From the UHGV virus genome UHGV-0470999: a stretch of DNA of 44,302 bases; one strand, given 5' to 3'. Positions 955 to 43,485 of the stretch are shown here, in pieces. The stretch's first letter is position 1. Every line of letters starts with the position of its first letter. Source of the DNA: a virus. The notes below the pieces were generated by a model, which was not told the DNA's origin, made no database searches, and saw nothing but the letters and a program-made list of their open reading frames with translations. A program made the translations under genes and the position numbers.

Positions 955-2916
955 ATGTGGGAATTATTTTTTATGCAGATAAGTAAATTAGGGCTTAGTG
1001 AGGCTATTAAAAAATTGGTAGGTGTTGTTATTGACGAGAAGGTAAGACCGATATTAGAAACATCTAATATAAAGGAAGAGGATAGAAATAATATTGAACA
1101 ATGCCTAATGGAATATTTGGCTACAAGTCATAATAAGGCGATAACAATGAATACAATAGTTTTTAGAGGGTATCCAAAAAAGCTTTATGACCTTTATGTG
1201 CCTATTACACTTACAGCAAATATGTTTGGAAATCGGTCGCGAGAAGAATATGTTATGAATGAAAACTATGACACATTGTTAAAACGTTATAATAAAATAT
1301 TAATTGTAGATACAGCAGGGATGGGCAAGTCCACACTCGTTAAGTATTTAGCAGTTCAGTCAATAAACAATAATACAAGTATACCTATTATAGTTGAATT
1401 GCGTAAATTAGAAAAGCATGAAGATATATTAGATTATATTTTACGTCAATTTGACTCGATTGATAAGAAAATAACAAAAGAACATTTTATACCCATGTTA
1501 AAAAGGGGAGATTTTACAATATTTTTTGATGGCTATGATGAAGTTTCAGTAGAAAAAAGAGGTATAATTATTGATAATTTAAAAGATTTTATTTACAAAG
1601 CAAGTGATAATAAATTTGTACTTACGTCTCGGGAGGAATCTGATTTAAGTGCTCTTGGTGAGTTTATAAGGTTTTCTATAAAGCCTTTAAAGATTTCAGA
1701 GGCCTATGAATTAATAAAAAGATATGATGAGGAGGGTACAATATCGGAAAGTCTGATAAATCGTTTACAAGAAGATTCTCGGATGAAGGTGGTTAGGGAT
1801 TTTTTAAAGAATCCACTATTAGTATCACTCTTATATAAAACATATGAATATAAAGAAGATATAGCTTACAAAAAATTAAGTTTTTATGAGCAAGTCTACG
1901 AAGCGCTATTTTATGACCATGATAAAACAAAAGGAGGCGCATATGTCCATGATAAAAAAAGCGGTCTAGATGCTCATAGTTTTGAAAGGCTCCTTCGGCG
2001 AATTGCTTTTTTCTCTTTGCAGGAGAATAAAGTAGGGTATTCAAAGAATGAAATTTATGAATTTATAGATAAATCCATTAAGGGAATGTCGAGCTTAAAT
2101 TTAGTTACATCAGAAAGTGTATTAGATGATTTATTACATGCCGTACCTCTTATGCACAAAGATGGAAACGATATAAAATGGGTACATAAATCGTTTATGG
2201 AATATTTTGCAGCAAGTTTTATTTGTTATGATAGTGGTGAAATAGATAAACTTTTTCGTCATATGATGAAATCAAAAGGTGTGGAGAGATACACAAATGT
2301 TTTGGGATTTTGTTATGAGATAAATCCTGATGTATTCCGAAGGGTAATCATACTACCTTTTTTAAAAAAGTATATTGATTTTTATGATAAAGTTTTTTGG
2401 GATATAAAGCAAAGAAATTGGGACAAAAAGCTTATATGTAAAATAGTTAGTTTAGAATTCTGTCATTCGTTCAGATTGGGGATTTATGATTCTGTTGAGG
2501 CCGCTACTGCCGCATTTAATGATAAACATTCAATACTTAATAAAATGTTTATGCCAGTAAAAGGTGTGAATATTAGAATGCTCACGCATGTAGGTAATAT
2601 TTTGATAGGACAAGGAGATAAGAATGAATGTTTTCTTTCCAATGTCTTATATGACAATGGCATAGATATTTTTTTGAGAGTCCCAACTAAAATTAGTCAT
2701 GATTTATATTTCGCATTAGAAGGGATGGAAAGAAAAATATATGTTTGGGACAATATTTTAAATCAGACAGAAGAAAATGTTAGCACAATTATACAATCTG
2801 TTCTTCCATGCATTACTGAAAAATATTTTATAGATTATGAAAAGTGTGTTCAATTAAAAGCCGAAATTGAAGACGAAATGATGATAGCTAAAAGCTTAAG
2901 TTTTGATTTGTTTTAA
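955..2916 (+). CDS. NACHT/STAND-family P-loop NTPase (candidate antiviral STAND, bNACHT/Avs-like), AT-rich moron
   Basis: Walker A LIVDTAGMGKSTLVKYL, Walker B hhhhDGYDEV (FTIFFDGYDEV), 653 aa; GC content far below flanking phage genes; own promoter. Confidence 0.6.
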   Translation: MWELFFMQISKLGLSEAIKKLVGVVIDEKVRPILETSNIKEEDRNNIEQCLMEYLATSHNKAITMNTIVFRGYPKKLYDLYVPITLTANMFGNRSREEYVMNENYDTLLKRYNKILIVDTAGMGKSTLVKYLAVQSINNNTSIPIIVELRKLEKHEDILDYILRQFDSIDKKITKEHFIPMLKRGDFTIFFDGYDEVSVEKRGIIIDNLKDFIYKASDNKFVLTSREESDLSALGEFIRFSIKPLKISEAYELIKRYDEEGTISESLINRLQEDSRMKVVRDFLKNPLLVSLLYKTYEYKEDIAYKKLSFYEQVYEALFYDHDKTKGGAYVHDKKSGLDAHSFERLLRRIAFFSLQENKVGYSKNEIYEFIDKSIKGMSSLNLVTSESVLDDLLHAVPLMHKDGNDIKWVHKSFMEYFAASFICYDSGEIDKLFRHMMKSKGVERYTNVLGFCYEINPDVFRRVIILPFLKKYIDFYDKVFWDIKQRNWDKKLICKIVSLEFCHSFRLGIYDSVEAATAAFNDKHSILNKMFMPVKGVNIRMLTHVGNILIGQGDKNECFLSNVLYDNGIDIFLRVPTKISHDLYFALEGMERKIYVWDNILNQTEENVSTIIQSVLPCITEKYFIDYEKCVQLKAEIEDEMMIAKSLSFDLF

Positions 2917-2988
2917 AAGAAATAAACGTTTTTAGCAACCAATTACTACTAAACATAATCTAAAACAATACGAAACGAGGTGAGCCCG

Positions 2989-3540
2989 ATGGCATTAACG
3001 CCCAAACAGAAAATATTTGTAGATGAATACCTAATTGACCTTAATGCCACCAGGGCCTACAAGGTGGCGTATCCCAGTTGTAAGAAGGATGATGCAGCAG
3101 CAGTCAACGGAAGCAAGCTGCTAAGAAATACTAAGGTCGCAGAATACATACAGGAACGTATGAAGGAACGCTCAAAACGCACAGAAATTACTCAGGACCG
3201 CGTTCTGCAGGAACTGGAAAAACTGGTTCTGTTCGATATCAGGAAGTTGTTTGACAGTAATGGAAAACCAGTGGATATATCAATGCTTGATGATGACACG
3301 GCTGCCTGTATTGCAGGGCTGGAAGTGGTAGACTATTTCGAAGGAGCAGGAGAGGAAAGGGAGTTTGCGGGATATGTAAAAAAGTATAAGCTTACGGATA
3401 AGTTAAGGGCGATAGAACTGATGGGCCGCCACTTTGGTATGTTTAAGGACAAGCTGGAGCTGTCCGGTGAGATAAGGACCAACAATCCTTACGCCAGCCT
3501 GACAACAGAAGAATTAAAGAAGCTGATACATGGTGGATAG
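2989..3540 (+). CDS. terS: terminase small subunit (P27/Terminase_2-like)
   Basis: N-terminal LTPKQKIFVDEYLIDLNATRAYKVAY motif typical of TerS; GAGGTGA RBS before ATG 2989; directly upstream of TerL. Confidence 0.75.
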   Translation: MALTPKQKIFVDEYLIDLNATRAYKVAYPSCKKDDAAAVNGSKLLRNTKVAEYIQERMKERSKRTEITQDRVLQELEKLVLFDIRKLFDSNGKPVDISMLDDDTAACIAGLEVVDYFEGAGEEREFAGYVKKYKLTDKLRAIELMGRHFGMFKDKLELSGEIRTNNPYASLTTEELKKLIHGG

Positions 3541-21806: not shown

Positions 21807-23018
21807 ATGGGGAATATAGCAACATCAGGAGGTGCCGGAGGCGGCACGGGGAGTGATGAGTGTACGGCAGTACTCGCCCATGTATTGGCAGGAGAGACTG
21901 CCGTGACATCGGACAGCGGGGACGAACCCAGGCCGGGTACGATGACCGTAAACAGCTTACTGTCTTTTAGCTGTGCCGCCTATTCTGGCCGGAGGGTGCT
22001 GGCAAAATGGCAGAATCCAAGGGCGGCAATTGGGAAACCATACAGCGGTGTGTACATCCGTTACAGTACCGGCGGATACCCTGGAAAGACCGGGGGGACG
22101 CAGATATATAAGGGGGCCGGTAACAATGCGGCGTCTGAAGGGCAGTCACAGACATATCTGGACCTGCCTGCCCTGAACACAACCTACTACCTGAGTATAT
22201 ACCCATATGTGACCTGCAACGCCGGAGAAATGACAGGAGGAGTGATTAACACATCCGTCAAAACAGCAGCACAGCTTATCCTGACCATAAAGGGGACACA
22301 GAACTATACCATACCAATAGGATACAGTCAGGCTGATATATTCTGTGTTGGCGGAGGCGGGGCTGGCTCGTTTGGTAATTATGATGCCCCGAACGGAGTA
22401 GGCGGAGGCGGCGGAGGTGCGGGATATACAGCTACCGCAAACAACATTGCTATTTCTGCGGGTCAGGTTCTTTCCTGCATGGTTGGAGCAGGAGGCGAAA
22501 AGGAGTATACTTACATACCAAAACCCGGAGCAGCATCATCCGTAAGCAGGAATGGAATCACATTAATTACTGCAAATGGAGGGGGAATATACAGTACTAC
22601 AAGCAATTCGAATGAAAATACAGTAGGAGGACCTGGAGGTTCAGGAGGAGGCGCAGGTGGATATAAAGGCGGGAGCAGTTGGATAGCCGGATATCCAGGC
22701 GGGGCTGATGGCAGCAATGGAGGTCAATATTATTTTGATGCAGGGGCAGGCCAGGGGAGGACCACAAGGGCCTTTGGTGAGGCGAACGGGACACTGTATG
22801 CCGGAGGCGGGGGCGGGGGGACCGGTAGCAATGGCGCTGGTTATGGAGCCGGAGGTGCCGGAGGCGGAGGTACAGGTGGGGCCTGGTTCAGTAATGGAGG
22901 AAATGCATCAGCCAATACTGGAGGCGGGGGAGGCGGGGCCGGAGGGACAAGCAACAATACCACGCATACCTCAGGAGGAAATGGTGGTTCAGGGTTAATA
23001 TTAATCAGACTAAAATAA
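21807..23018 (+). CDS. glycine-rich tail fibre protein, paralog 1 (no homopolymer tract)
   Basis: Conserved ~170-aa domain (GTMTVNSLLSFSCAAYSGRRVLAKWQNP...) + (GGX)n region + conserved C-terminus GGSGLILIRLK shared with two downstream paralogs. Confidence 0.7.
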   Translation: MGNIATSGGAGGGTGSDECTAVLAHVLAGETAVTSDSGDEPRPGTMTVNSLLSFSCAAYSGRRVLAKWQNPRAAIGKPYSGVYIRYSTGGYPGKTGGTQIYKGAGNNAASEGQSQTYLDLPALNTTYYLSIYPYVTCNAGEMTGGVINTSVKTAAQLILTIKGTQNYTIPIGYSQADIFCVGGGGAGSFGNYDAPNGVGGGGGGAGYTATANNIAISAGQVLSCMVGAGGEKEYTYIPKPGAASSVSRNGITLITANGGGIYSTTSNSNENTVGGPGGSGGGAGGYKGGSSWIAGYPGGADGSNGGQYYFDAGAGQGRTTRAFGEANGTLYAGGGGGGTGSNGAGYGAGGAGGGGTGGAWFSNGGNASANTGGGGGGAGGTSNNTTHTSGGNGGSGLILIRLK

Positions 23019-23029
23019 AGGAGATTGAC

Positions 23030-23356
23030 ATGATAGCACATGAAGTATTTGCAATGATTGCAGACAATACGGTACAGAACGTATGCGTGGGGGACAGCTA
23101 TGAAGAAGCAAACCGTGTAGCAAGAGCGGTGTACGGAGATGACGCCGCGGCAGTGGATTGCCTGCAATATCCTTGTGCAAAGGGAGACAGATATATTAAT
23201 GGGGTATTTTATAAACCGGATGGAGTGACGCCGATTGAGTACATACCAACCCAGGAACAACAGATACAGCAGCTTTGGGCGGAGAATATGATGTTGAAGC
23301 AGGAAAGCCAGGAAATGACATTGGCTTTGGCTGACATGATAGGGGGTGCAATATAA
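23030..23356 (+). CDS. XkdW-like protein
   Basis: 108 aa directly after fibre gene, PBSX xkdV-W-X arrangement. Confidence 0.4.
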   Translation: MIAHEVFAMIADNTVQNVCVGDSYEEANRVARAVYGDDAAAVDCLQYPCAKGDRYINGVFYKPDGVTPIEYIPTQEQQIQQLWAENMMLKQESQEMTLALADMIGGAI

Positions 23357-23511
23357 TGTTATCCACCATACAGAAAAATATTATCATACGTGCCTTGCGC
23401 ATCAGGCAGGAGGCGGGGGAACAGCCGGAGAAAGTATTGACAGGATACAAGAATCTGTCAGAGGAGGAAAAGACGGAGATACTGGCAATCGTGGTCCAGG
23501 GAAAGGAGTAA
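23356..23511 (+). CDS. XkdX-like small protein (51 aa)
   Basis: MLSTIQKNIIIRALRIRQEAGEQPEKVLTGYKNLSEEEKTEILAIVVQGKE; overlaps stop of previous gene (TAATG); not in ORF track; the listed ORF 23346-24677 N-terminus is this region in another frame. Confidence 0.35.
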   Translation: MLSTIQKNIIIRALRIRQEAGEQPEKVLTGYKNLSEEEKTEILAIVVQGKE

Positions 23512-23514
23512 GGC

Positions 23515-24677
23515 ATGGGAAAGATTTATGTTACCCCAAACGGGGGGGGGGTGGATTGAATCCAGAGGATTTGAATACCACACCAGATAAGGTTCTGGCA
23601 CCGTATATATTCGGAGGAAAGGATTCAGACGAACCTCAGGTAGGGACCATGACAGTAAACAGCCTGCTGTCTTTTAACTGTGCCGCCTTTTCTGGCAGAC
23701 GGATATTAGCGAAATGGCAGAATCCAAAGGCGGCGAAGGGAAAACCCTATAGTGGGGTATATATAAGATACAGTACAAGCGGATATCCAGGAAAGACCGG
23801 AGGGACACAGATATACAAAGGGGCTGGCAGCAATACGTCCTCGGAAGGGCAGTCACAGACATATCTGGACCTTCCTAATCTCAATACCACATATTACCTA
23901 AGCTGTTATCCATATGTGACATGCAGCGCAGGAGAGATGACAGGGACGGCAATCAATGCCACTGTTAAGACATCCGACCAGATTAGTGTGACAATTAAAG
24001 GCACCCAGACATACACCATACCAGCGGGATTCAACAGAATGGATGCGTTTGCAGTAGGTGGCGGAGGCGCTGGTGCAACCTCTGATTATAGCGAAAAGAC
24101 TACAGGAGGCGGCGGTGGTGGTGGATATACTGCCTCACTTAAAGATGTCTCCATAATCCCAGGCCAAGTGCTGGCATGTACGGTAGGGAGCGGTGGTACA
24201 AGTGCTGGAAGCGGAACAATCAACGGAGGAAATACCATAATCTCCAGAAACGGAACCACATTACTAGCCGCGAACGGGGGAAACGGGATATACCGAAATT
24301 ATTATGGGGGAAATGGAGGCTCTGGAGGAGGAAGAGGAGGAACCACAACCGGAAACGGAAACACGGGAGGCTCAAACGGAGGAAGTGGAGGAGGAACCAA
24401 TGGCGGAAGAGGACAAGGCACCACAACCAGGGCATTCGGGGAAACATCAGGGACCTTGTATGCCGGAGGTGGAGGCGGAGGTGGAGGTAGCAACGGCTCT
24501 GGTGGCCCAGGAGGTGCCGGAGGTGGAGGTGCTGGAGGCGGGGGAAACAGTAATGGTTCTAATGCCGCAGCCAATACTGGAGGGGGTGGAGGAGGCGGAG
24601 GAAGATTTAACTATGGGGGATATGAAGGGGCCGGAGGTTCAGGTGGTTCAGGAATAATATTGTTAAGATTAAAATAA
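23515..24677 (+). CDS. glycine-rich tail fibre protein, paralog 2; out of frame at a G10 tract (phase OFF as sequenced; G11 would restore the full ORF)
   Basis: ATG 23515 MGKIYVTPNGGG then stop at 23557-59; +1 G gives MGKIYVTPNGGGGGLNPEDL... joining the long ORF ending 24677; homologous to paralogs 1 and 3. Confidence 0.6.
23542..23551 (+). repeat. poly-G homopolymer tract (G10) in 5' coding region of fibre paralog 2
   Basis: 10 consecutive G read directly. Confidence 0.9.
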
Positions 24678-25874: not shown

Positions 25875-25887
25875 GAAGGTGAGGTAT

Positions 25888-26346
25888 ATGAAGATGAAGT
25901 TTTTGGATAAGTGTAATGCAACCTACGGAGCAGTAGTGACAATCCTTGTAGCCATACTGGGGCCATATTGGTACATATTTGCGGGATACCTGCTCTTCAA
26001 TGTCCTGGATTGGTTGACGGGATGGTATAAGGCCAGGAAGTTAGGGAGGGAATCAAGTAAGACTGGATTGAAGGGTATCCTGAAAAAGCTAGGCTACTGG
26101 GTAATCATCCTAGTGTCCTTCCTGATGCCGAAATTATTCATCGGATTAGGTCATGACATCCTGGGATTTAACCTGGATTTCCTGCTGCTTTTAGGTTGGT
26201 TCACGCTGGCCTGCCTATTAGTCAACGAAATCCGTAGCATACTGGAAAACCTGGTTGAGTGTGGCTATGATGTGCCAGCCTTTTTGATTAAGGGGTTGGA
26301 GGTAACAGAAAAGCTTATTAATGCAGAGACCGAGAAGGTCAACTAA
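25888..26346 (+). CDS. holin (phage_holin_4_1 / TcdE-like family)
   Basis: ~150 aa with three hydrophobic segments, position upstream of endolysin. Confidence 0.65.
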   Translation: MKMKFLDKCNATYGAVVTILVAILGPYWYIFAGYLLFNVLDWLTGWYKARKLGRESSKTGLKGILKKLGYWVIILVSFLMPKLFIGLGHDILGFNLDFLLLLGWFTLACLLVNEIRSILENLVECGYDVPAFLIKGLEVTEKLINAETEKVN

Positions 26347-26362
26347 GAAAGAGAGGTATATC

Positions 26363-26557
26363 ATGTCGGTAGTAACAAATAAACACGCAGCAGACCTTAA
26401 CAGGGACAGGACATCTGGCCCAGACTTTGTCCCAAAACAGCCCACCCCGTACCTATATGATGCACCCACGGATGCACCACACCCAGGTAAGCACCAGAGC
26501 GGTGTTGGCGGCCCCAGTGACCGCGATAATAATGGAGTGGACGATAGCGAAGATTAG
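26363..26557 (+). CDS. small acidic hypothetical protein between holin and endolysin
   Basis: 64-aa ORF with RBS GAGAGG. Confidence 0.3.
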   Translation: MSVVTNKHAADLNRDRTSGPDFVPKQPTPYLYDAPTDAPHPGKHQSGVGGPSDRDNNGVDDSED

Positions 26558-26638
26558 TTGCGACACTGCAACAGTGGAACCGGTACAACTATTGGCCTGG
26601 GGGTATCCTTGGGCCTGATTTCGAGTGGAGGTATTATT

Positions 26639-27379
26639 ATGAGAGACATTACATTATGCCATCCTCGCCTGCAACTGCTGGCCATCCGGCTGGTTGAGGA
26701 ATGTAACAAGCAAGGACTGCATATTAAGATAGGCGAGACCCTACGCACCACGGCAGAGCAGGACGCCCTATATGCCCAGGGACGCACCAAGCCAGGCAGT
26801 ATTGTGACCAATGCATCCGGAATCAGCTACAGTTCTTACCATCAATGGGGCACTGCATTCGACATTTTCAGGAATGACGGCGCTGGCGCCTATAATGAGT
26901 CTGACCGTTTCTTCCAACGGGTCGGGGTCATCGGCGTGGCCCTGGGCCTGGAATGGGGCGGGGACTGGAAATCCATCGTGGACATGCCGCATTTCCAGCT
27001 TCCGGACTGGGGGAGCAGCACGTCCGGGATTAAAAAGATATACGCCAATCCGGAGGCGTTCATGAAGACCTGGACTGTGGAGGAACGGACCGGATGGATT
27101 AAGGACAGCAACGGCTGGTGGTACCGCAGGCCGGATGGGACTTATCCGGCCAATGCCTGGCACATCATCAATCACCACTGGTATCTGTTCAACCGCAACG
27201 GCTATGCCTGCACCAGCTGGCACCGCTGGAATGGCAGCGTGTGCGACCCGGAGGACGGCTCTGGTGACTGGTACTATTTCGACCCGACCCCGGATGGGCC
27301 GCTGGAGGGCGCCTGCTGGCATAGCAGGAACAACGGGGCGCAGGGGGTATGGTACGTGGACGCCCTGGATAGTATATAA
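26639..27379 (+). CDS. endolysin: VanY/M15-family peptidase domain + C-terminal cell-wall-binding repeats
   Basis: SYHQWGTAFDI (SxHxxGxAxD of M15), C-terminal GWWYRRPDGTY...GDWYYFDP repeats (CW_binding_1-like); GGAGGT RBS before ATG 26639. Confidence 0.75.
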   Translation: MRDITLCHPRLQLLAIRLVEECNKQGLHIKIGETLRTTAEQDALYAQGRTKPGSIVTNASGISYSSYHQWGTAFDIFRNDGAGAYNESDRFFQRVGVIGVALGLEWGGDWKSIVDMPHFQLPDWGSSTSGIKKIYANPEAFMKTWTVEERTGWIKDSNGWWYRRPDGTYPANAWHIINHHWYLFNRNGYACTSWHRWNGSVCDPEDGSGDWYYFDPTPDGPLEGACWHSRNNGAQGVWYVDALDSI

Positions 27380-27420
27380 AAAGCGGCGGGGAATGCCCCG
27401 CCTGTCATCATAATTTTTCA
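27380..27420. terminator. bidirectional rho-independent terminator (GGCGGGG aatg CCCCGCC) between endolysin and convergent Spo0A_C gene
   Basis: 7-bp GC stem with T-runs on both strands. Confidence 0.55.
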
Positions 27421-27752
27421 TATTGATTTGATATATAATGCGATACGGCATCAATAAATTCACCATTTCGTGGTTTCTGAGTAAGTTCATAGCCAAAGAT
27501 TGAGTTTAATAAATTTCTATCCCCACGGTTCCATATTTTATGTATAACAGTTCGCATATCTCGTTCCACACATCCTGTTGTTGTATGGTATTTGGTGGCA
27601 ATTTCCACATACAAGCCTTTGGAGATATAAGTAATTAAATCTGGATTGTGAATATTGAGTGTAACGCCATAGGCGATATAGCTGAAACCTATGTAAGAAT
27701 TGTTCACACCCAATTTGCGTAGTATTTGAGCAGCTTTTCTTTCGTAAGTCAT
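27408..27752 (-). CDS. stand-alone Spo0A C-terminal DNA-binding domain protein (Spo0A_C homolog without receiver domain)
   Basis: Aligns with B. subtilis Spo0A C-domain: LGV..GY.Y, LYVEIATKYHTTTGCVERDMRTVIHKIWNRGD, IFGYELTQKPRNGEFIDAV versus [32 protein letters not shown]...[29 protein letters not shown] RBS. Confidence 0.7.
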   Translation of the reverse strand: MTYERKAAQILRKLGVNNSYIGFSYIAYGVTLNIHNPDLITYISKGLYVEIATKYHTTTGCVERDMRTVIHKIWNRGDRNLLNSIFGYELTQKPRNGEFIDAVSHYISNQYEKL

Positions 27753-27866
27753 AGTAGTCCTCCTTAAGTTATCAATACATATATTAAACGCATATAGGCG
27801 GCAAATGTTAACAAAAATTAGACGACAAAATACGACTTTTTATGGTGATAAATAGTGTATAATAGA

Positions 27867-27899
27867 ATAAAAAAAATACGGCGATTGCATTGCCGTACT
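27867..27899 (-). terminator. rho-independent terminator for XRE gene (GTACGGC aatgcaat CGCCGTA + T8)
   Basis: Read on minus strand directly after stop of 27898-28122 gene. Confidence 0.5.
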
Positions 27900-28122
27900 A
27901 CTTGCTTGGAAAATGTGACTTGATATTAGAACATCCGCATATATAGTCCATGCTGACATCATAAAGCCGCGCAAGTATTATGATGGAGTCAAGCGGGATT
28001 CTGGTCTTACCCAGTTCATAATCCGCATATGTCCTCTGGCCTACGTGCAGGATACTGGCAATGTATGTCTGTGTATACTCGTGGTCCTCTCTTAATGCTC
28101 TAATTCTTTTCGTATAATGCAT
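27898..28122 (-). CDS. XRE-family helix-turn-helix transcriptional regulator (74 aa)
   Basis: RIRALREDHEYTQTYIASILHVGQRTYADYELGKTRIPLDSIIILARLY is a classic XRE HTH; GGAGGTGGAGG RBS 6 nt before ATG 28122. Confidence 0.7.
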   Translation of the reverse strand: MHYTKRIRALREDHEYTQTYIASILHVGQRTYADYELGKTRIPLDSIIILARLYDVSMDYICGCSNIKSHFPSK

Positions 28123-28138
28123 GATATACCTCCACCTC

Positions 28139-28217
28139 CATTCCACATATTGTACATTAGAGCTATATACTCTATTGACTTTTAGAGTTATAAACTCTAA
28201 TATTAATATGTGGAATG
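28139..28217. promoter_or_regulatory. divergent control region: 13-bp inverted repeat CATTCCACATATT/AATATGTGGAATG flanking two 17-bp operators TAGAG-N7-CTCTA and a sigma-A promoter (TTGACT 28175-80, 17-nt spacer, TAATAT 28198-203) for the + strand small ORF
   Basis: All motifs read directly; operator 2 lies in the -35/-10 spacer. Confidence 0.5.
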
Positions 28218-28233
28218 AAGGAGGGGGTTAATC

Positions 28234-28392
28234 ATGAGACAAAGGAAAAAATTTAGTGACGAACAATTACTTCAAGAATTCTACCTTGCCCAAAGGGTAC
28301 CAGATAAGGACGTGCCAAAGCCAAAACCAGATGAATTTAAACGAATTTGGGAGAGGATACAAAGCGGAAAAGAAAAGAAGTCGGCTGAATAA
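28234..28392 (+). CDS. small hypothetical protein (52 aa), divergent from XRE regulator
   Basis: MRQRKKFSDEQLLQEFYLAQRVPDKDVPKPKPDEFKRIWERIQSGKEKKSAE; GGAGGGGG RBS. Confidence 0.35.
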   Translation: MRQRKKFSDEQLLQEFYLAQRVPDKDVPKPKPDEFKRIWERIQSGKEKKSAE

Positions 28393-28453: not shown

Positions 28454-28708
28454 TTATATGTCCAACATGAGCCTAGAAGCGATTCGGAAACCTTGCACAA
28501 AGCCATCCTCCCGAGCGCTTGTTGCAATAATGTCTTGTTGTTCAATGTAATTTTTAAAGTCTTTCAGAAATTCTGGCGGTAATCTTTGACACAGTTCATC
28601 TTTTAGCAATTCCGCTTGAGTCATTGCGTTGACATATTCGGCAGAGTCTATGTCTGCAATCTCATCATCTTGTAACATGTCAAACCTTCGGTAAATTTCT
28701 CTTATCAT
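28454..28708 (-). CDS. hypothetical acidic protein (84 aa)
   Basis: ORF with AAAGGAGA RBS; adjacent to candidate attP. Confidence 0.35.
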   Translation of the reverse strand: MIREIYRRFDMLQDDEIADIDSAEYVNAMTQAELLKDELCQRLPPEFLKDFKNYIEQQDIIATSAREDGFVQGFRIASRLMLDI

Positions 28709-28784: not shown

Positions 28785-28975
28785 TATTAGCAACAAATTT
28801 CTCTAAAGTGACGTATTTGCGTTATTTTAGGTATGCACTCTGCATTGCAATTATCCCATTTTTTACAATTTATTACAACAAATAAACACAAATACGTTGT
28901 TTTTGTGGTGATATAGGTAAGCGTAAAGCGCTGAAAAAAAATCTATTAGCAACAAATTAGCAACGTATTAGCAAC
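28785..28975. repeat. candidate attP region: direct repeats of TTAGCAAC (28787, 28946, 28957, 28968; last three phased at 11 bp) immediately 3' of the integrase gene
   Basis: Repeats read directly; 15-mer ATTAGCAACAAATT occurs twice; AT-rich ORF-free 270-bp region next to int. Confidence 0.45.
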
Positions 28976-28982
28976 AAGGTAG

Positions 28983-30164
28983 CTAAATACTATAGCCTAT
29001 CTTATTAACTTCTCGCAGTAATTCATCCGGGGTTCGATGGGTATACACGTTTTCTGTCAAGTCCTGTATTGCATGTCCCACTATGAGTTTTAGACAATAT
29101 TCATCCAGTCCAGCTTGCTTGGCACGGGTGACAAATGTATGGCGGGTGTCATGAGGTGTGTGTTTAGTTTTCATATCTGCCATGATGGCCCTAAAACGAT
29201 GGGCATACATGTTATAAGTCACGTCGTCGTCCGCTATCTTAAACAGTTTACCAGTATTAATCCTTTGAGCAATCAAATTATATATTTTGTCATGGATGGG
29301 GATAATTCTATCCCGGCCAGCTTCTGTTTTGCTCCCACCTACCATATAGTGTTCCCCCAGATTTATATTGCCGGACTCCAGAGCGCAGATCTCACCGGGC
29401 CGTAGTCCCGTGTATAATCCCACCAATACCATATCTGCACATTCCATGTCCAGCATTGTCCAGAGTTGTTGCACTTCCGTGTCCGGGAATACGATACGTG
29501 TTATACTGGCATCGGGTCTGGATACTACATCAGTCAGTTCAGCATAGTTCCGTTCGACAATCTCATATTTTAATCCCCACTTAAATAGATTAATTAACAG
29601 GCTTCGGGCATCCCTGCGAACGATGGCAGATTTTGAAGGATCAGAAATTAGTTCGTCAAGGTCAGCAGTTTTAAGGTCCCGGAGCATTTTATTGTGTATA
29701 GGGGCGCAGAATTTATAGGCATCAGCCCATGCTCTTTGCCGGCCTGCGGATAGTTTTTTGTCTTCAAAGTATTTTTTAGACCATTCGTCATATGCTTCGG
29801 ATAACGTGGTGTCATATTTCTTTTCGTGTGGAGTTTTGTTGTAATTTATTAGAGCCTGATATGCCGCAACATATGTTTTGAAACTTGCTACTGGCTCGAT
29901 GGGTTTTTGAATCGGATGTCCTAGAGGGGTACGTCCTACAGTCTTCCGTACATAATAAGGCTTACGCCTGTTTGAACCTTGATACGATATACTTCCAAAT
30001 CCGTTAGGCAGACGCATCTCGGTTGATGGCTTTGGCCGCTTGGTCTTGGTAGATGAAGATTTGTGGGGAACCTGCTGGATTGAGATTGGGAAACCGCAGT
30101 GAGGGCAGGCCTGAGCCCTATCACTTACTTTACCCTCACATTCTGGACATTGTATGAGTGCCAT
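28983..30164 (-). CDS. int: tyrosine-type site-specific integrase with N-terminal Zn-ribbon (start at 30164 preferred; ORF opens at 30221)
   Basis: Catalytic signature GLRPGE ... HDTRHTF ... GH ... VYTHR (R, HxxR, Y); N-terminal CPECEG...CPHCG; AGGAAGGA RBS 8 nt before ATG 30164. Confidence 0.85.
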   Translation of the reverse strand: MALIQCPECEGKVSDRAQACPHCGFPISIQQVPHKSSSTKTKRPKPSTEMRLPNGFGSISYQGSNRRKPYYVRKTVGRTPLGHPIQKPIEPVASFKTYVAAYQALINYNKTPHEKKYDTTLSEAYDEWSKKYFEDKKLSAGRQRAWADAYKFCAPIHNKMLRDLKTADLDELISDPSKSAIVRRDARSLLINLFKWGLKYEIVERNYAELTDVVSRPDASITRIVFPDTEVQQLWTMLDMECADMVLVGLYTGLRPGEICALESGNINLGEHYMVGGSKTEAGRDRIIPIHDKIYNLIAQRINTGKLFKIADDDVTYNMYAHRFRAIMADMKTKHTPHDTRHTFVTRAKQAGLDEYCLKLIVGHAIQDLTENVYTHRTPDELLREVNKIGYSI

Positions 30165-30315: not shown

Positions 30316-30350
30316 CTAGGAGTTCGCAGCTCCTGGGGCTTTTGTTTTTT
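30316..30350. terminator. hairpin CTAGGAG ttcgcag CTCCTGG followed by GGCTTTTGTTTTTT (terminator downstream of ImmA gene / upstream boundary of int)
   Basis: 7-bp stem and T-run read directly. Confidence 0.45.
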
Positions 30351-30813
30351 AAAATTTAAAATACCTTCCTATCCTTAGATAGGGTTCGAACTGTACATAG
30401 TAATCCTCAACAATAGTACCAGTCCCATAAATTTGCCTATATGCTTCTAACGCCTCGGATATAGTATCCTCGGACACATCTAAGTATTCGGAAAGCTCAT
30501 AGATATTTTGGCAATGTGCATTGTAGGCTTTTATAATATCGACAAGAGGAATTTGCATATTATAGGCCTTAATGCGCGCACGGCGTTCCTGCTTTCTTGC
30601 ATCTACAGTATTCTGTTCGATAATCCTGCCTACCGTGGTATAGTAGTGGCCCAATTCTTCTGCAAGGACATCAGCTTTTTTCTTCAAGGTTGGAATGTCC
30701 TGTCTGATAGCAATACGCTTTCCCTTAATACGTCCATCACTCAATGGAAGTGGTTTTTCCTTTACAACCAGTCCGGCTCTTTCAGCCTCTATCAGTAACT
30801 CTTCATATCCCAA
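30349..30813 (-). CDS. immA: ImmA/IrrE-family metallopeptidase (anti-repressor protease)
   Basis: HEXXH as AEELGHYY, size 154 aa, immediately downstream of and co-oriented with the XRE repressor (ImmR/ImmA arrangement). Confidence 0.7.
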   Translation of the reverse strand: MGYEELLIEAERAGLVVKEKPLPLSDGRIKGKRIAIRQDIPTLKKKADVLAEELGHYYTTVGRIIEQNTVDARKQERRARIKAYNMQIPLVDIIKAYNAHCQNIYELSEYLDVSEDTISEALEAYRQIYGTGTIVEDYYVQFEPYLRIGRYFKF

Positions 30814-30829
30814 GCAATCACCTCAACGA

Positions 30830-31438
30830 TTAAAAGTCTGGGTTATCCATGATATCATCTTCTTGTCGGATTAGTTCGTCTGTGCGTTCATCCTCTGAGA
30901 TATCAGTACGGTTATGGGCAGCATCAGGAATTAAGTGAGCATTGTCTGATGTAGCAACAGATTCATGCATGAGGAAAACATTATTTTTGATATTGTCAGA
31001 TGAACCATAAGGGGCCGGTTCATCGGAGGCCGTAGATGGAGGTTGTATAGTTTTCTTTTCGGAATATATCTTTGCAAGATCCTCCAGATTATCGAGAGCC
31101 TTTTTCTGTCCAATTTCATTAAGCATTGAGTAATATTGCATAAGCCTTAGTGCGCGGTCTTTTTTTTGAGGACTCATGTATTCAACAATACAAAGGATTT
31201 TATTATCAGGTGAGACAATGGCTATATCTGACTTTGATTCTTCCCAGCCCATTAGGTCAGCCGGTGTTGTTTCTAACACACTAGCTAAAGGTTCAAGTAC
31301 TGTTATTGGTAAATCTTTAATGTCATCTTTTTCATATCTGTATACAGTAGCTCTGTTTTTCCCTAATTTCTTCGCAACTTCATCAACGGATAGCCCTAAT
31401 TCGTTTCTTCGTTTTTTTATTCTTTGCCCAATCGTCAT
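30830..31438 (-). CDS. immR: phage repressor, XRE-family HTH (ImmR/cI-like)
   Basis: N-terminal IGQRIKKRRNELGLSVDEVAKKLGKNRATVYRYE HTH; AAGGTGGTGA RBS 6 nt before ATG 31438; divergent from cro-like gene. Confidence 0.8.
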   Translation of the reverse strand: MTIGQRIKKRRNELGLSVDEVAKKLGKNRATVYRYEKDDIKDLPITVLEPLASVLETTPADLMGWEESKSDIAIVSPDNKILCIVEYMSPQKKDRALRLMQYYSMLNEIGQKKALDNLEDLAKIYSEKKTIQPPSTASDEPAPYGSSDNIKNNVFLMHESVATSDNAHLIPDAAHNRTDISEDERTDELIRQEDDIMDNPDF

Positions 31439-31460
31439 GTTATTCACCACCTTGTAGGGC

Positions 31461-42531: not shown

Positions 42532-43485
42532 ATTAATACACTATATATTATTGGTAACGGATTTGATATAGCTCATGGGTTAAAAACTAATTATTGGGAA
42601 TTAAGAAAATATATAGAAAAAAGAGATGATGCGTTTTTAGGTGCATTTGAAGAACTGTATGGCATATATCCTTTGGATGTTACTGAAAGGTGGTATACGA
42701 AGGAAATTCAAGAATATTGGGATAAGGATGTCAATTACAGTTTATGGAGTACATTTGAGAAATTTATGGGTAATCCCAATACGTCACAGATGATTGAACA
42801 ATCAAAGCCTGCAACTGAAGGTATGCCGCCAGTTGGAATTCGGTATTGCATGGATTTGTTTTGGAAAGAGAGATTTGGATTTATTAATAAATTGCATAGA
42901 TATGTTAAAGAATGGATTGAGTCAGTTGATACTAGCAAGGTTATATGCAGAAAGAAGGGGATGGTAAATAGCACTGATTTTTATTTCAGTTTTAATTATA
43001 CAGATGTTCTGGAAAGAGTGTACGGTATTGAGAGTGTTCTTCATATACATGGAGGTGTTGCTTCAGTATGTGATGTACCACCGATTATGGGACATAGTAA
43101 TGAGCAGGATATACAGAAATATAGGGAGTGGGCAAAAGAGGCAGCTAATGAGTTTGATGAGGCGAATGCAAGTATAATGGATGCGGTGGCAGATTACCTT
43201 GAAACAATATATAAAGATACTAAAAGCCAAATAAGATTTAATAAAAGTTTTTTTAATAGGCTCAGCACTGTCAATAGGGTTATTATTATGGGATGGTCTG
43301 CAGGTGAAGCAGATATTCCCTATCTGCAGGAGATAATAAAAAATATCAGTCATAATACAAGATGGACAGTGTATTGGTATAATAAAGATGCATATAATTC
43401 GTTAGAAAATGTATTTAAAAAAGAAAGTATTGTGGATAACAATGTAATAGAATACATTCAGTCAGATGCATTCTGGAGTGATTAA
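42532..43485 (+). CDS. abiH: AbiH-family abortive infection protein; no canonical start codon upstream of the conserved N-terminal motif (candidate ATT start at 42532; ORF track shows only the TTG-started 42673-43485 part)
   Basis: In-frame N-terminal INTLYIIGNGFDIAHGLKTNYWELRKYI matches the AbiH N-terminal signature (YIIGNGFDxxHGL); AGGGGG RBS 8 nt before ATT; AT-rich island. Confidence 0.55.
   Translation: MNTLYIIGNGFDIAHGLKTNYWELRKYIEKRDDAFLGAFEELYGIYPLDVTERWYTKEIQEYWDKDVNYSLWSTFEKFMGNPNTSQMIEQSKPATEGMPPVGIRYCMDLFWKERFGFINKLHRYVKEWIESVDTSKVICRKKGMVNSTDFYFSFNYTDVLERVYGIESVLHIHGGVASVCDVPPIMGHSNEQDIQKYREWAKEAANEFDEANASIMDAVADYLETIYKDTKSQIRFNKSFFNRLSTVNRVIIMGWSAGEADIPYLQEIIKNISHNTRWTVYWYNKDAYNSLENVFKKESIVDNNVIEYIQSDAFWSD

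Follow-up and report, generated by a model that had tools for sequence, protein, structure and literature searches.

Gut phages of spore-forming hosts can carry homologues of spo0A that encode the effector domain only (Schwartz et al. 2023, mBio, PMC10294663). That study presented 29 virome sequences with an alignment and proposed a control of sporulation independent of host signals; it makes no mention of prophage position, promoters, 0A boxes or Lachnospiraceae (PMC10294663). Isolated Spo0A DNA-binding domains (DBDs) bind legitimate targets without phosphorylation (PMC3485338). The genomes of phages phi29 and Nf carry 0A boxes that couple them to the sporulation switch of the host; neither phage encodes a Spo0A-like protein, and it is the host's own Spo0A that acts as a repressor at their lytic promoters and origins. 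In Nf, one Spo0A site mapped by footprinting consists of two imperfect boxes 3 bp apart (PMC2731898). Phage homologues resembling sigF and sigG are also phage copies of sporulation regulators, of a different family and acting later in the cascade, and they have experimental support: according to work cited in PMC10294663, these sigma-factor homologues lowered the spore yield of B. subtilis when expressed ectopically. The gene analysed here lies on the minus strand of UHGV-0470999, a stretch of 44,302 nt (the window) that is the complete genome of a temperate myovirus. It encodes a protein of 114 amino acids (aa) made up of a Spo0A effector domain (Spo0A_C) and is a further member of the published phage-borne class, being a homologue with the effector domain only on a complete phage genome. 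Like phi29 and Nf, the window phage would be coupled to the sporulation switch by 0A boxes, but it encodes the binding domain itself; in contrast to the engineered Spo0A-DBD, its protein is naturally receiver-less. What appears to be new is the breadth of the family, its chromosomal members, multi-domain fusions, a mobile four-gene cassette and, above all, the phased 0A boxes upstream of the genes; genome context and an attachment (att) site are likewise additions to the Schwartz set. Novelty was judged within the literature library searched, in which no experimental follow-up to Schwartz et al. 2023 was found.

An earlier note on this DNA had placed a 114-aa open reading frame (ORF) at 27408-27752 and had read it as a C-terminal domain of Spo0A without a receiver. 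The ORF is found exactly there, on the minus strand, and the Pfam search that the note had proposed returns Spo0A_C (PF08769) over the whole domain (E=1.4e-31; 109 bits, the cut-off being 25), with positions 3-104 of the 104-position model aligned. The NCBIfam equivalog model of Spo0A (spore_0_A, TIGR02875) gives 73.3 bits against a cut-off of 200, and only its positions 149-253 of 262 are aligned; since the alignment is limited to this C-terminal part, the receiver half is absent. A bona fide Spo0A combines receiver and effector and exceeds the equivalog cut-off, and the present protein does neither, its ORF beginning at the effector domain. In a sequence search of the PDB, the only significant matches are the Spo0A effector domains 1FC3 (E=3e-15) and 1LQ1 (E=4e-14). 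An AlphaFold2 model computed from 30 family sequences has seven helices and a predicted local distance difference test (pLDDT) score of 94.9. It superposes on DNA-bound Spo0A (1LQ1_C) with a template-modelling (TM) score of 0.89 and a root-mean-square deviation of 1.6 A, and it contains the six-helix effector fold with a helix-turn-helix (HTH) seen in 1FC3 and 1LQ1; in a structure search with this model, non-Spo0A folds all score at E>1. The window gene is thus confirmed as a complete, receiver-less Spo0A effector domain. Sequence identity is 31-33% to 1LQ1 and 1FC3, which are of the Bacillus group, and 40% to P0143, a canonical Spo0A of clostridial type. In PHROGs it falls into phrog_24603, a 111-aa family with no assigned function, and a PADLOC scan for defence systems matched it at chance level only.

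Base-specific contacts of Spo0A go to G2, C4 and G5 of the 0A box TGTCGAA, and the contact residues are all conserved between Bacillus and C. difficile (PMC3485338). In the window protein, E63, R64 and R67 align with E213, R214 and R217 of B. subtilis Spo0A and keep the E-R-x-x-R pattern. These three are reportedly the residues that read the bases in the B. subtilis protein, according to the 2002 work of Zhao et al.; the contacts to G2, C4 and G5 support this assignment, and a literature search for the named contact residues gave nothing relevant. The numbering follows the 267-aa B. subtilis sequence, the positions of which agree with the names of the classical mutants. The close family has 14 invariant alignment columns; E63 and R64 are invariant and R67 is nearly so, with conservation of the three residues at 95-100%. 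They are 91-98% conserved in the wider single-domain set and only 55-63% in tandem-domain proteins. Loss of key DNA-contact residues, which the earlier note had named as a result that would tell against it, is therefore not what the alignment shows, and the core of DNA reading looks preserved at the sequence level. With canonical Spo0A effectors (B. subtilis, G. stearothermophilus, C. difficile) the protein further shares the fold and the equivalents of W224, G227 and F236. Its recognition helix, CVERDMRTVIHKIW, is not the canonical one: the family carries the signature CVER[DN]IRT, as against [SR]VERAIRH, and P0143 equals B. subtilis at this place.

The transcription unit is compact. With 34.5%, the G+C content of the ORF is below that of the window (48.4%) and of the endolysin gene beside it (57%), and the gene has its own ribosome-binding site (RBS). 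Because a terminator stands at each flank (Table 1), the gene is insulated on both sides; in relatives, the stem of the upstream terminator is conserved and its loops vary. The AT-rich composition, RBS and bounding terminators described in the earlier note were thus all recovered. Upstream of the gene lie conserved blocks with a TTGTTA-N22-TAATAT arrangement, and two imperfect 0A-like boxes form a putative operator. G2, C4 and G5 are kept in both half-sites. Four diverged versions of the cassette, with proteins of 63-89% identity, have the string GTCGT[AT]TTTTGTCG unchanged in their upstream regions, amid positions that vary; close relatives have TTTTGTCGTC at the equivalent place and reversed tandem boxes 20-35 nt further upstream. 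The geometry equals that of the Nf site, and by a post hoc count the two-box pattern is unique in the window. The boxes stand directly upstream of a weak -35-like TTGTTA (TTGATA in relatives), a placement that would suit an activator rather than a repressor.

The arrangement recurs across the family. For every family gene in the fetched loci, 250 nt of upstream DNA were collected, and control ORFs of at least 100 aa were taken from the same loci. Perfect boxes (TGTCGAA/TTCGACA) reach a density of 2.76 per kb upstream of family genes; over the whole of these loci the density is 0.115 per kb. A perfect box stands at -120 to -60 in 48 of 87 unique upstream regions (55%), compared with 13 of 1,645 control ORFs (0.8%). 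Since many regions are related, 102 unique upstream regions were clustered into 42 non-alignable groups, and after this de-replication 19 of the 42 have a perfect box at -125 to -50, against 18 of 1,995 controls. Box positions cluster at -73 to -111, and the boxes are arranged either in tandem with a 3-bp spacer or as the palindrome TTCGACA-N5-TGTCGAA. Among same-strand pairs of GTCG cores, 23 of 26 are exactly 10 bp apart, and inverted pairs are spaced by 11, 21 or 31 bp; it follows from the 10-bp phasing that all sites are exposed on the same side of the helix. Copies carried by phages in IMG/VR share this upstream pattern, and the operator in the window fits both the positional range and the phasing. 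The boxes of C. difficile spo0A and sigH are located at -75 and -78 (PMC3485338).

Boxes are also found elsewhere in the window. A gene for a NACHT/STAND NTPase (955-2916, plus strand; 653 aa; phrog_18297; Pfam NACHT, nSTAND3 and SNaCT5) occupies an island of 30% G+C and is a candidate anti-phage defence gene. Its promoter region (890-954) contains an extended -10, TGaTATAAT (918-926), between TTCGTCA (908-914) and TGTCGAA (934-940); because 0A-type boxes bracket the extended -10, either Spo0A or the Spo0A_C protein of the phage might act on this promoter. Three TGNCGAA boxes fall on the coding strand within 240 bp inside the integrase ORF (29553-29790, minus strand), a greater density than in the rest of the window, which may be chance.

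The stand-alone domain belongs to a large family. An exhaustive profile-free search over cluster representatives (clusters at 50% identity) found 5,624 representatives at E<=1e-3, of which 843 remain at E<=1e-10, and more than 100 clusters share a length of ~113 aa. Architectures were assigned for 190 retrieved proteins: 118 are single domains of at most 135 aa, 41 are single domains of 136-200 aa and three are single domains of more than 200 aa, whereas 25 have two to five tandem Spo0A_C domains and three include a receiver domain. The only canonical architecture among them (receiver and one effector) is P0143, with 276 aa, at rank ~100; family members are closer to each other than to true Spo0A. 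The possibility of a recently clipped host spo0A as the origin was rejected in view of this large, diverged stand-alone family with its own helix signature. In GTDB the family is overwhelmingly found in Lachnospiraceae and other Clostridia (Enterocloster, Hungatella, Frisingicoccus, Cuneatibacter, Oliverpabstia, Oscillibacter), and several genomes have more than one copy. Att-proximal genes that follow lysis genes are seen in the window, in L115 and in the IMG/VR loci L098-L103; others lie at the lysogeny-side edge of prophages (L087, L112) and one in a defence island of the BrxC/BrxD type (L114). By its sequences, the stand-alone Spo0A_C is an old, diversified family common to phages and hosts. 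Multi-domain members include P0042, P0044, P0075, P0061, P0134 and P0155, for example a protein of 439 aa with four domains and one of 849 aa with five; two of the head-to-tail proteins carry a receiver followed by two Spo0A_C domains. To our knowledge, such head-to-tail multi-Spo0A_C architectures have not been described. In another prophage (L115:6141-7342), the Spo0A_C gene comes directly after a 71-aa N-terminal fragment of FeoB, and this prophage may have integrated inside the host gene feoB.

In the window, the gene forms a block with an HTH_3 gene, a 52-aa ORF without a match in Pfam and a DUF6809 gene. Proteins 89% (P0002) and 73% (P0003) identical to the window's Spo0A_C are encoded in the same four-gene block within differing phages (L116-L121), one of which has the same att site in a kinase gene with a different lysin and holin, and another a serine recombinase in place of the tyrosine integrase. 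Because the block is conserved in phages with different lysis genes and integrases, the cassette moves between phages as a unit. A pair of HTH and Spo0A_C genes (43% identity) is also seen in a chromosome, among metabolic genes (L113). When the window proteins were compared with 80 genome loci by tblastn, few neighbours proved to be shared; as the HTH partner recurs only in the lineage of the window phage and in L113, it is not family-wide. Between the HTH gene and the 52-aa ORF are inverted repeats, ATTAGAGCTATATACTCTA and TAGAGTTATAAACTCTAAT (28156-28201), and a 52-nt imperfect pair (28100-28256), which are probably the operator of the small HTH regulator.

Integrated copies give the position of the gene in the prophage. 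The exact 114-aa protein is present on 24 contigs (34 blocks of the collection), on some of which the phage is integrated; contigs in ERZ27283151 and ERZ28599989 run on into host sequence. In L002, L003, L005 and L006, bacterial DNA starts directly past the DUF6809 gene, at ~1.1 kb from the Spo0A_C gene, and in L092, L094, L096 and L097 it adjoins the integrase at the other end. The prophage order is therefore late genes, holin, lysin, then Spo0A_C, HTH, 52-aa ORF, DUF6809 and att. With the gene in the classical moron position between lysis genes and att, its earlier assignment to a lysogenic-conversion region is correct, and so is the moron-like anatomy, that of an autonomous unit of low G+C content with flanking terminators. 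The prophage splits a Hanks-type Ser/Thr kinase gene at the catalytic loop, between LVEYMHSA and YKLPILYLDLQPNN (L002:7724-8920, L092:7249-7674). The N-terminal fragment of 141-152 aa (Pkinase model 1-117) adjoins the integrase; the C-terminal fragment of 398 aa (Pkinase model 115-201 and a tail) adjoins DUF6809, and the next host gene is mecA. Like skin or SPbeta, the prophage may be an element that interrupts a host gene. Three direct repeats of GTTGCTAAT lie just past the integrase stop (~28940-28980) and one more lies on the opposite side of the attP core (~28790-28805); these are candidate arm-type binding sites of the integrase.

Table 1. Features of the Spo0A_C locus and of its surroundings in the window
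Feature	Position	Strand	Remarks
Spo0A_C gene	27408..27752	minus	ATG start; 114 aa; effector/DNA-binding domain only
RBS AAGGAGG	27759..27765	minus	6 nt before the ATG; read from the sequence; retained in homologous cassettes
Two imperfect 0A-like boxes, AGTCGTA-ttt-TGTCGTC	27821..27837	minus	spacer of 3 bp; -85 and -75 relative to the ATG; putative operator for Spo0A~P and/or the gene's own product
Intrinsic terminator 3' of the Spo0A_C stop	27385..27402	minus	hairpin and U-tract, -15.3 kcal/mol; shared, back-to-back, with the end of the endolysin gene
Intrinsic terminator of the HTH gene	about 27866..27899	minus	hairpin and U8, -9.7 kcal/mol, z=-2.7; upstream of Spo0A_C
HTH_3 (XRE-type) regulator, 74 aa	27898..28122	minus	directly upstream of Spo0A_C; Pfam HTH_3 E=3e-12
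52-aa ORF	28234..28392	plus (late-gene strand)	divergent from the HTH gene; called in all related loci
DUF6809 gene	28454..28708	minus	PF20648 E=2.6e-8; att-proximal; beside the cassette in L116-L121
attP core TATGCACTCTGCAT	28832..28845		phage compared with both prophage ends; host kinase gene split beyond
Tyrosine integrase with N-terminal zinc ribbon	28983..30164	minus	Pfam and prophage junctions; same strand as Spo0A_C
cI-like HTH and M78 peptidase	30349-31450	minus	lysogeny module together with the integrase
Holin and M15/VanY endolysin with choline-binding repeats	25879..27379	plus	last genes of the late operon; convergent with Spo0A_C; Pfam

The genome places its structural and lysis genes on the plus strand (terminase, portal, head/capsid, sheath, tape measure, baseplate, Gly-rich fibres, holin and M15 endolysin) and its lysogeny genes on the minus strand (cI-like HTH, M78 peptidase and tyrosine integrase). 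The window equals a metagenome contig of 44,357 bp, which is 55 bp longer and, we infer, a circular assembly. In a scan of genome contigs, relatives were at most 64% identical and none came with the exact prophage; the nearest related prophage is in [Clostridium] clostridioforme AGR2157, with tail genes 46-89% identical, and the host is inferred to be a gut clostridial, Lachnospiraceae-like bacterium. In the tail-fibre region, a direct repeat of 319 bp with 80% identity (21921-22237 and 23628-23944) links a Gly_rich_2 (PF21722) fibre gene (21807..23018) with an unannotated ORF (23346..24677), which suggests a duplicated or exchangeable receptor-binding module. An AbiH abortive-infection gene (42673-43485, plus strand; Pfam E=6e-34, PADLOC AbiH E=2e-16) is an AT-rich accessory gene of 34% G+C. 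Scans of the window with Rfam and for tRNAs found no RNA genes. An AT-rich island that would split the large terminase gene was rejected, as the ORF concerned (2980..3540) is the small terminase subunit.

The reading that we favour, at somewhat better than even chances, is that the protein is a phosphorylation-independent 0A-box binder, expressed through the upstream boxes, that alters the Spo0A regulon of the host. It would bind 0A-type boxes without phosphorylation, as a head-to-tail or symmetric dimer; host Spo0A~P, the Spo0A_C protein itself or both would switch on transcription of the cassette via the upstream boxes; the protein made in the lysogen would then occupy host 0A boxes and perhaps promoters of prophage accessory genes; and the Spo0A regulon and the sporulation decision would be altered and no longer track the phosphorelay. 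Binding of 0A-like DNA is likely, with indirect support from the phased boxes upstream of family genes, and for a real effect on host sporulation the chances are about balanced. The net effect, as a latch or amplifier or as a competitor or damper, has a direction that cannot be told from the sequence. The earlier note had the domain acting independently of phosphorelay input. This would stand for the protein, which is predicted to need no phosphorylation; it probably does not stand for its expression, since the gene lies behind tandem 0A-like boxes and its transcription may thus depend on host Spo0A~P or on its own product.

Several points weigh against this reading. Within the recognition helix, the non-contact positions C61, D65 and T68 replace R211, A215 and H218 of a near-invariant canonical helix, and these diverged flanks could have shifted the DNA specificity. 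The sigma-A-activating residues of Spo0A are G227, S231, S233, F236 and V240. Only two of these five are kept (G227 and F236), the others being L, N and L, and the activation helix is followed by a loop that lacks 3 aa relative to Spo0A, so the capacity for activation is uncertain. Upstream of the window gene there is no perfect 0A box, both boxes being imperfect; the pattern GTCGTN5GTCGT occurs once in the 44-kb window against 0.03 expected, a test of uniqueness for which the pattern was picked post hoc. A sigma-70 scan of the 145-nt gap on the minus strand (27753-27900) found no normally spaced promoter, and no convincing alternative-sigma promoter was seen upstream of the gene by eye. The phage genome is not enriched in boxes, with four TGTCGAA against 3.2 expected and 18 TGNCGAA against 18 expected; with counts at expectation, a phi29-like, 0A-box-rich phage genome was rejected. 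Chromosomal family genes (L089/L090, L091, L113) have no phage genes within 7-8 kb, and since many members are chromosomal in this way, the role of the family is not phage-specific. Finally, a literature search for experiments with Spo0A_C proteins, whether stand-alone or encoded by phages, turned up Schwartz et al. 2023 alone, and no experimental data.

The same observations bear on three other explanations. A purely local regulator would bind its own operator, and perhaps prophage accessory promoters such as that of the NACHT/STAND gene, with no meaningful effect on sporulation. The tandem boxes directly upstream of its own gene, the pair bracketing the extended -10 of the NACHT promoter, the diverged flanks of the recognition helix and the company of a second small HTH regulator in the cassette would all fit such a role. 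Yet the box found upstream across the family matches the 0A consensus of the host, TGTCGAA, exactly, and a protein that recognises it would for that reason also see host 0A boxes; the boxes lack overall enrichment in the phage genome, and the chromosomal members have no prophage to regulate. This explanation is therefore considered unlikely. Rather less probable still is an anti-Spo0A decoy, which would act through protein contacts, pairing with Spo0A~P or titrating the sigma surface, and would block sporulation in favour of the vegetative cell. Some residues of the activation helix are not those of Spo0A and a shorter loop follows it, the geometry of the tandem boxes implies contacts between neighbouring domains, and natural fusions of two to five Spo0A_C domains show that such domains work side by side. 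However, a pure protein decoy would not need the DNA-reading residues, which are strongly conserved, and the gene is found on the lysogeny strand in an att-proximal accessory position rather than in an early lytic operon.

That the gene has no function and is merely carried along, as the decaying remnant of a bacterial spo0A taken up by imprecise excision, is highly improbable and is effectively refuted by the conservation pattern. Its location near att, where imprecise excision captures host DNA, is what such an origin would predict. Against it stand the completeness of the domain, the start codon, RBS and terminators that the gene has of its own, the exact protein on 24 contigs with an 89%-identical version in phages that have different integrases and lysis genes, more than 100 clusters held at ~113 aa with 14 invariant columns, and an identity of only 31-33% to 1LQ1/1FC3 and 40% to P0143.

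The 0A-box binder acting on the host regulon can be placed in a wider frame, which is put forward tentatively and is rather doubtful as it stands: stand-alone Spo0A_C proteins may form a widespread and so far unrecognised regulatory layer on the sporulation switch of gut Clostridia, in which effector domains that need no phosphorylation provide feedback or a latch downstream of Spo0A~P through phased 0A boxes and which phages move as a four-gene cassette. The family-wide wiring of the boxes leads to specific predictions, namely that the cassette would be induced by Spo0A~P or activate itself and that the protein would bind TGTCGAA. The window offers an experimental handle on them, with a complete phage genome and a defined att site, a 114-aa protein with three evident sites for point mutants (E63, R64, R67) and a 17-bp candidate operator. 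If the regulatory layer exists, a prophage could sense and re-set the sporulation of its host, or time its own accessory and defence genes. Spores are a route of persistence and transmission for many gut anaerobes, and a prophage that biases the Spo0A decision would have consequences for its own fitness and for that of its host.

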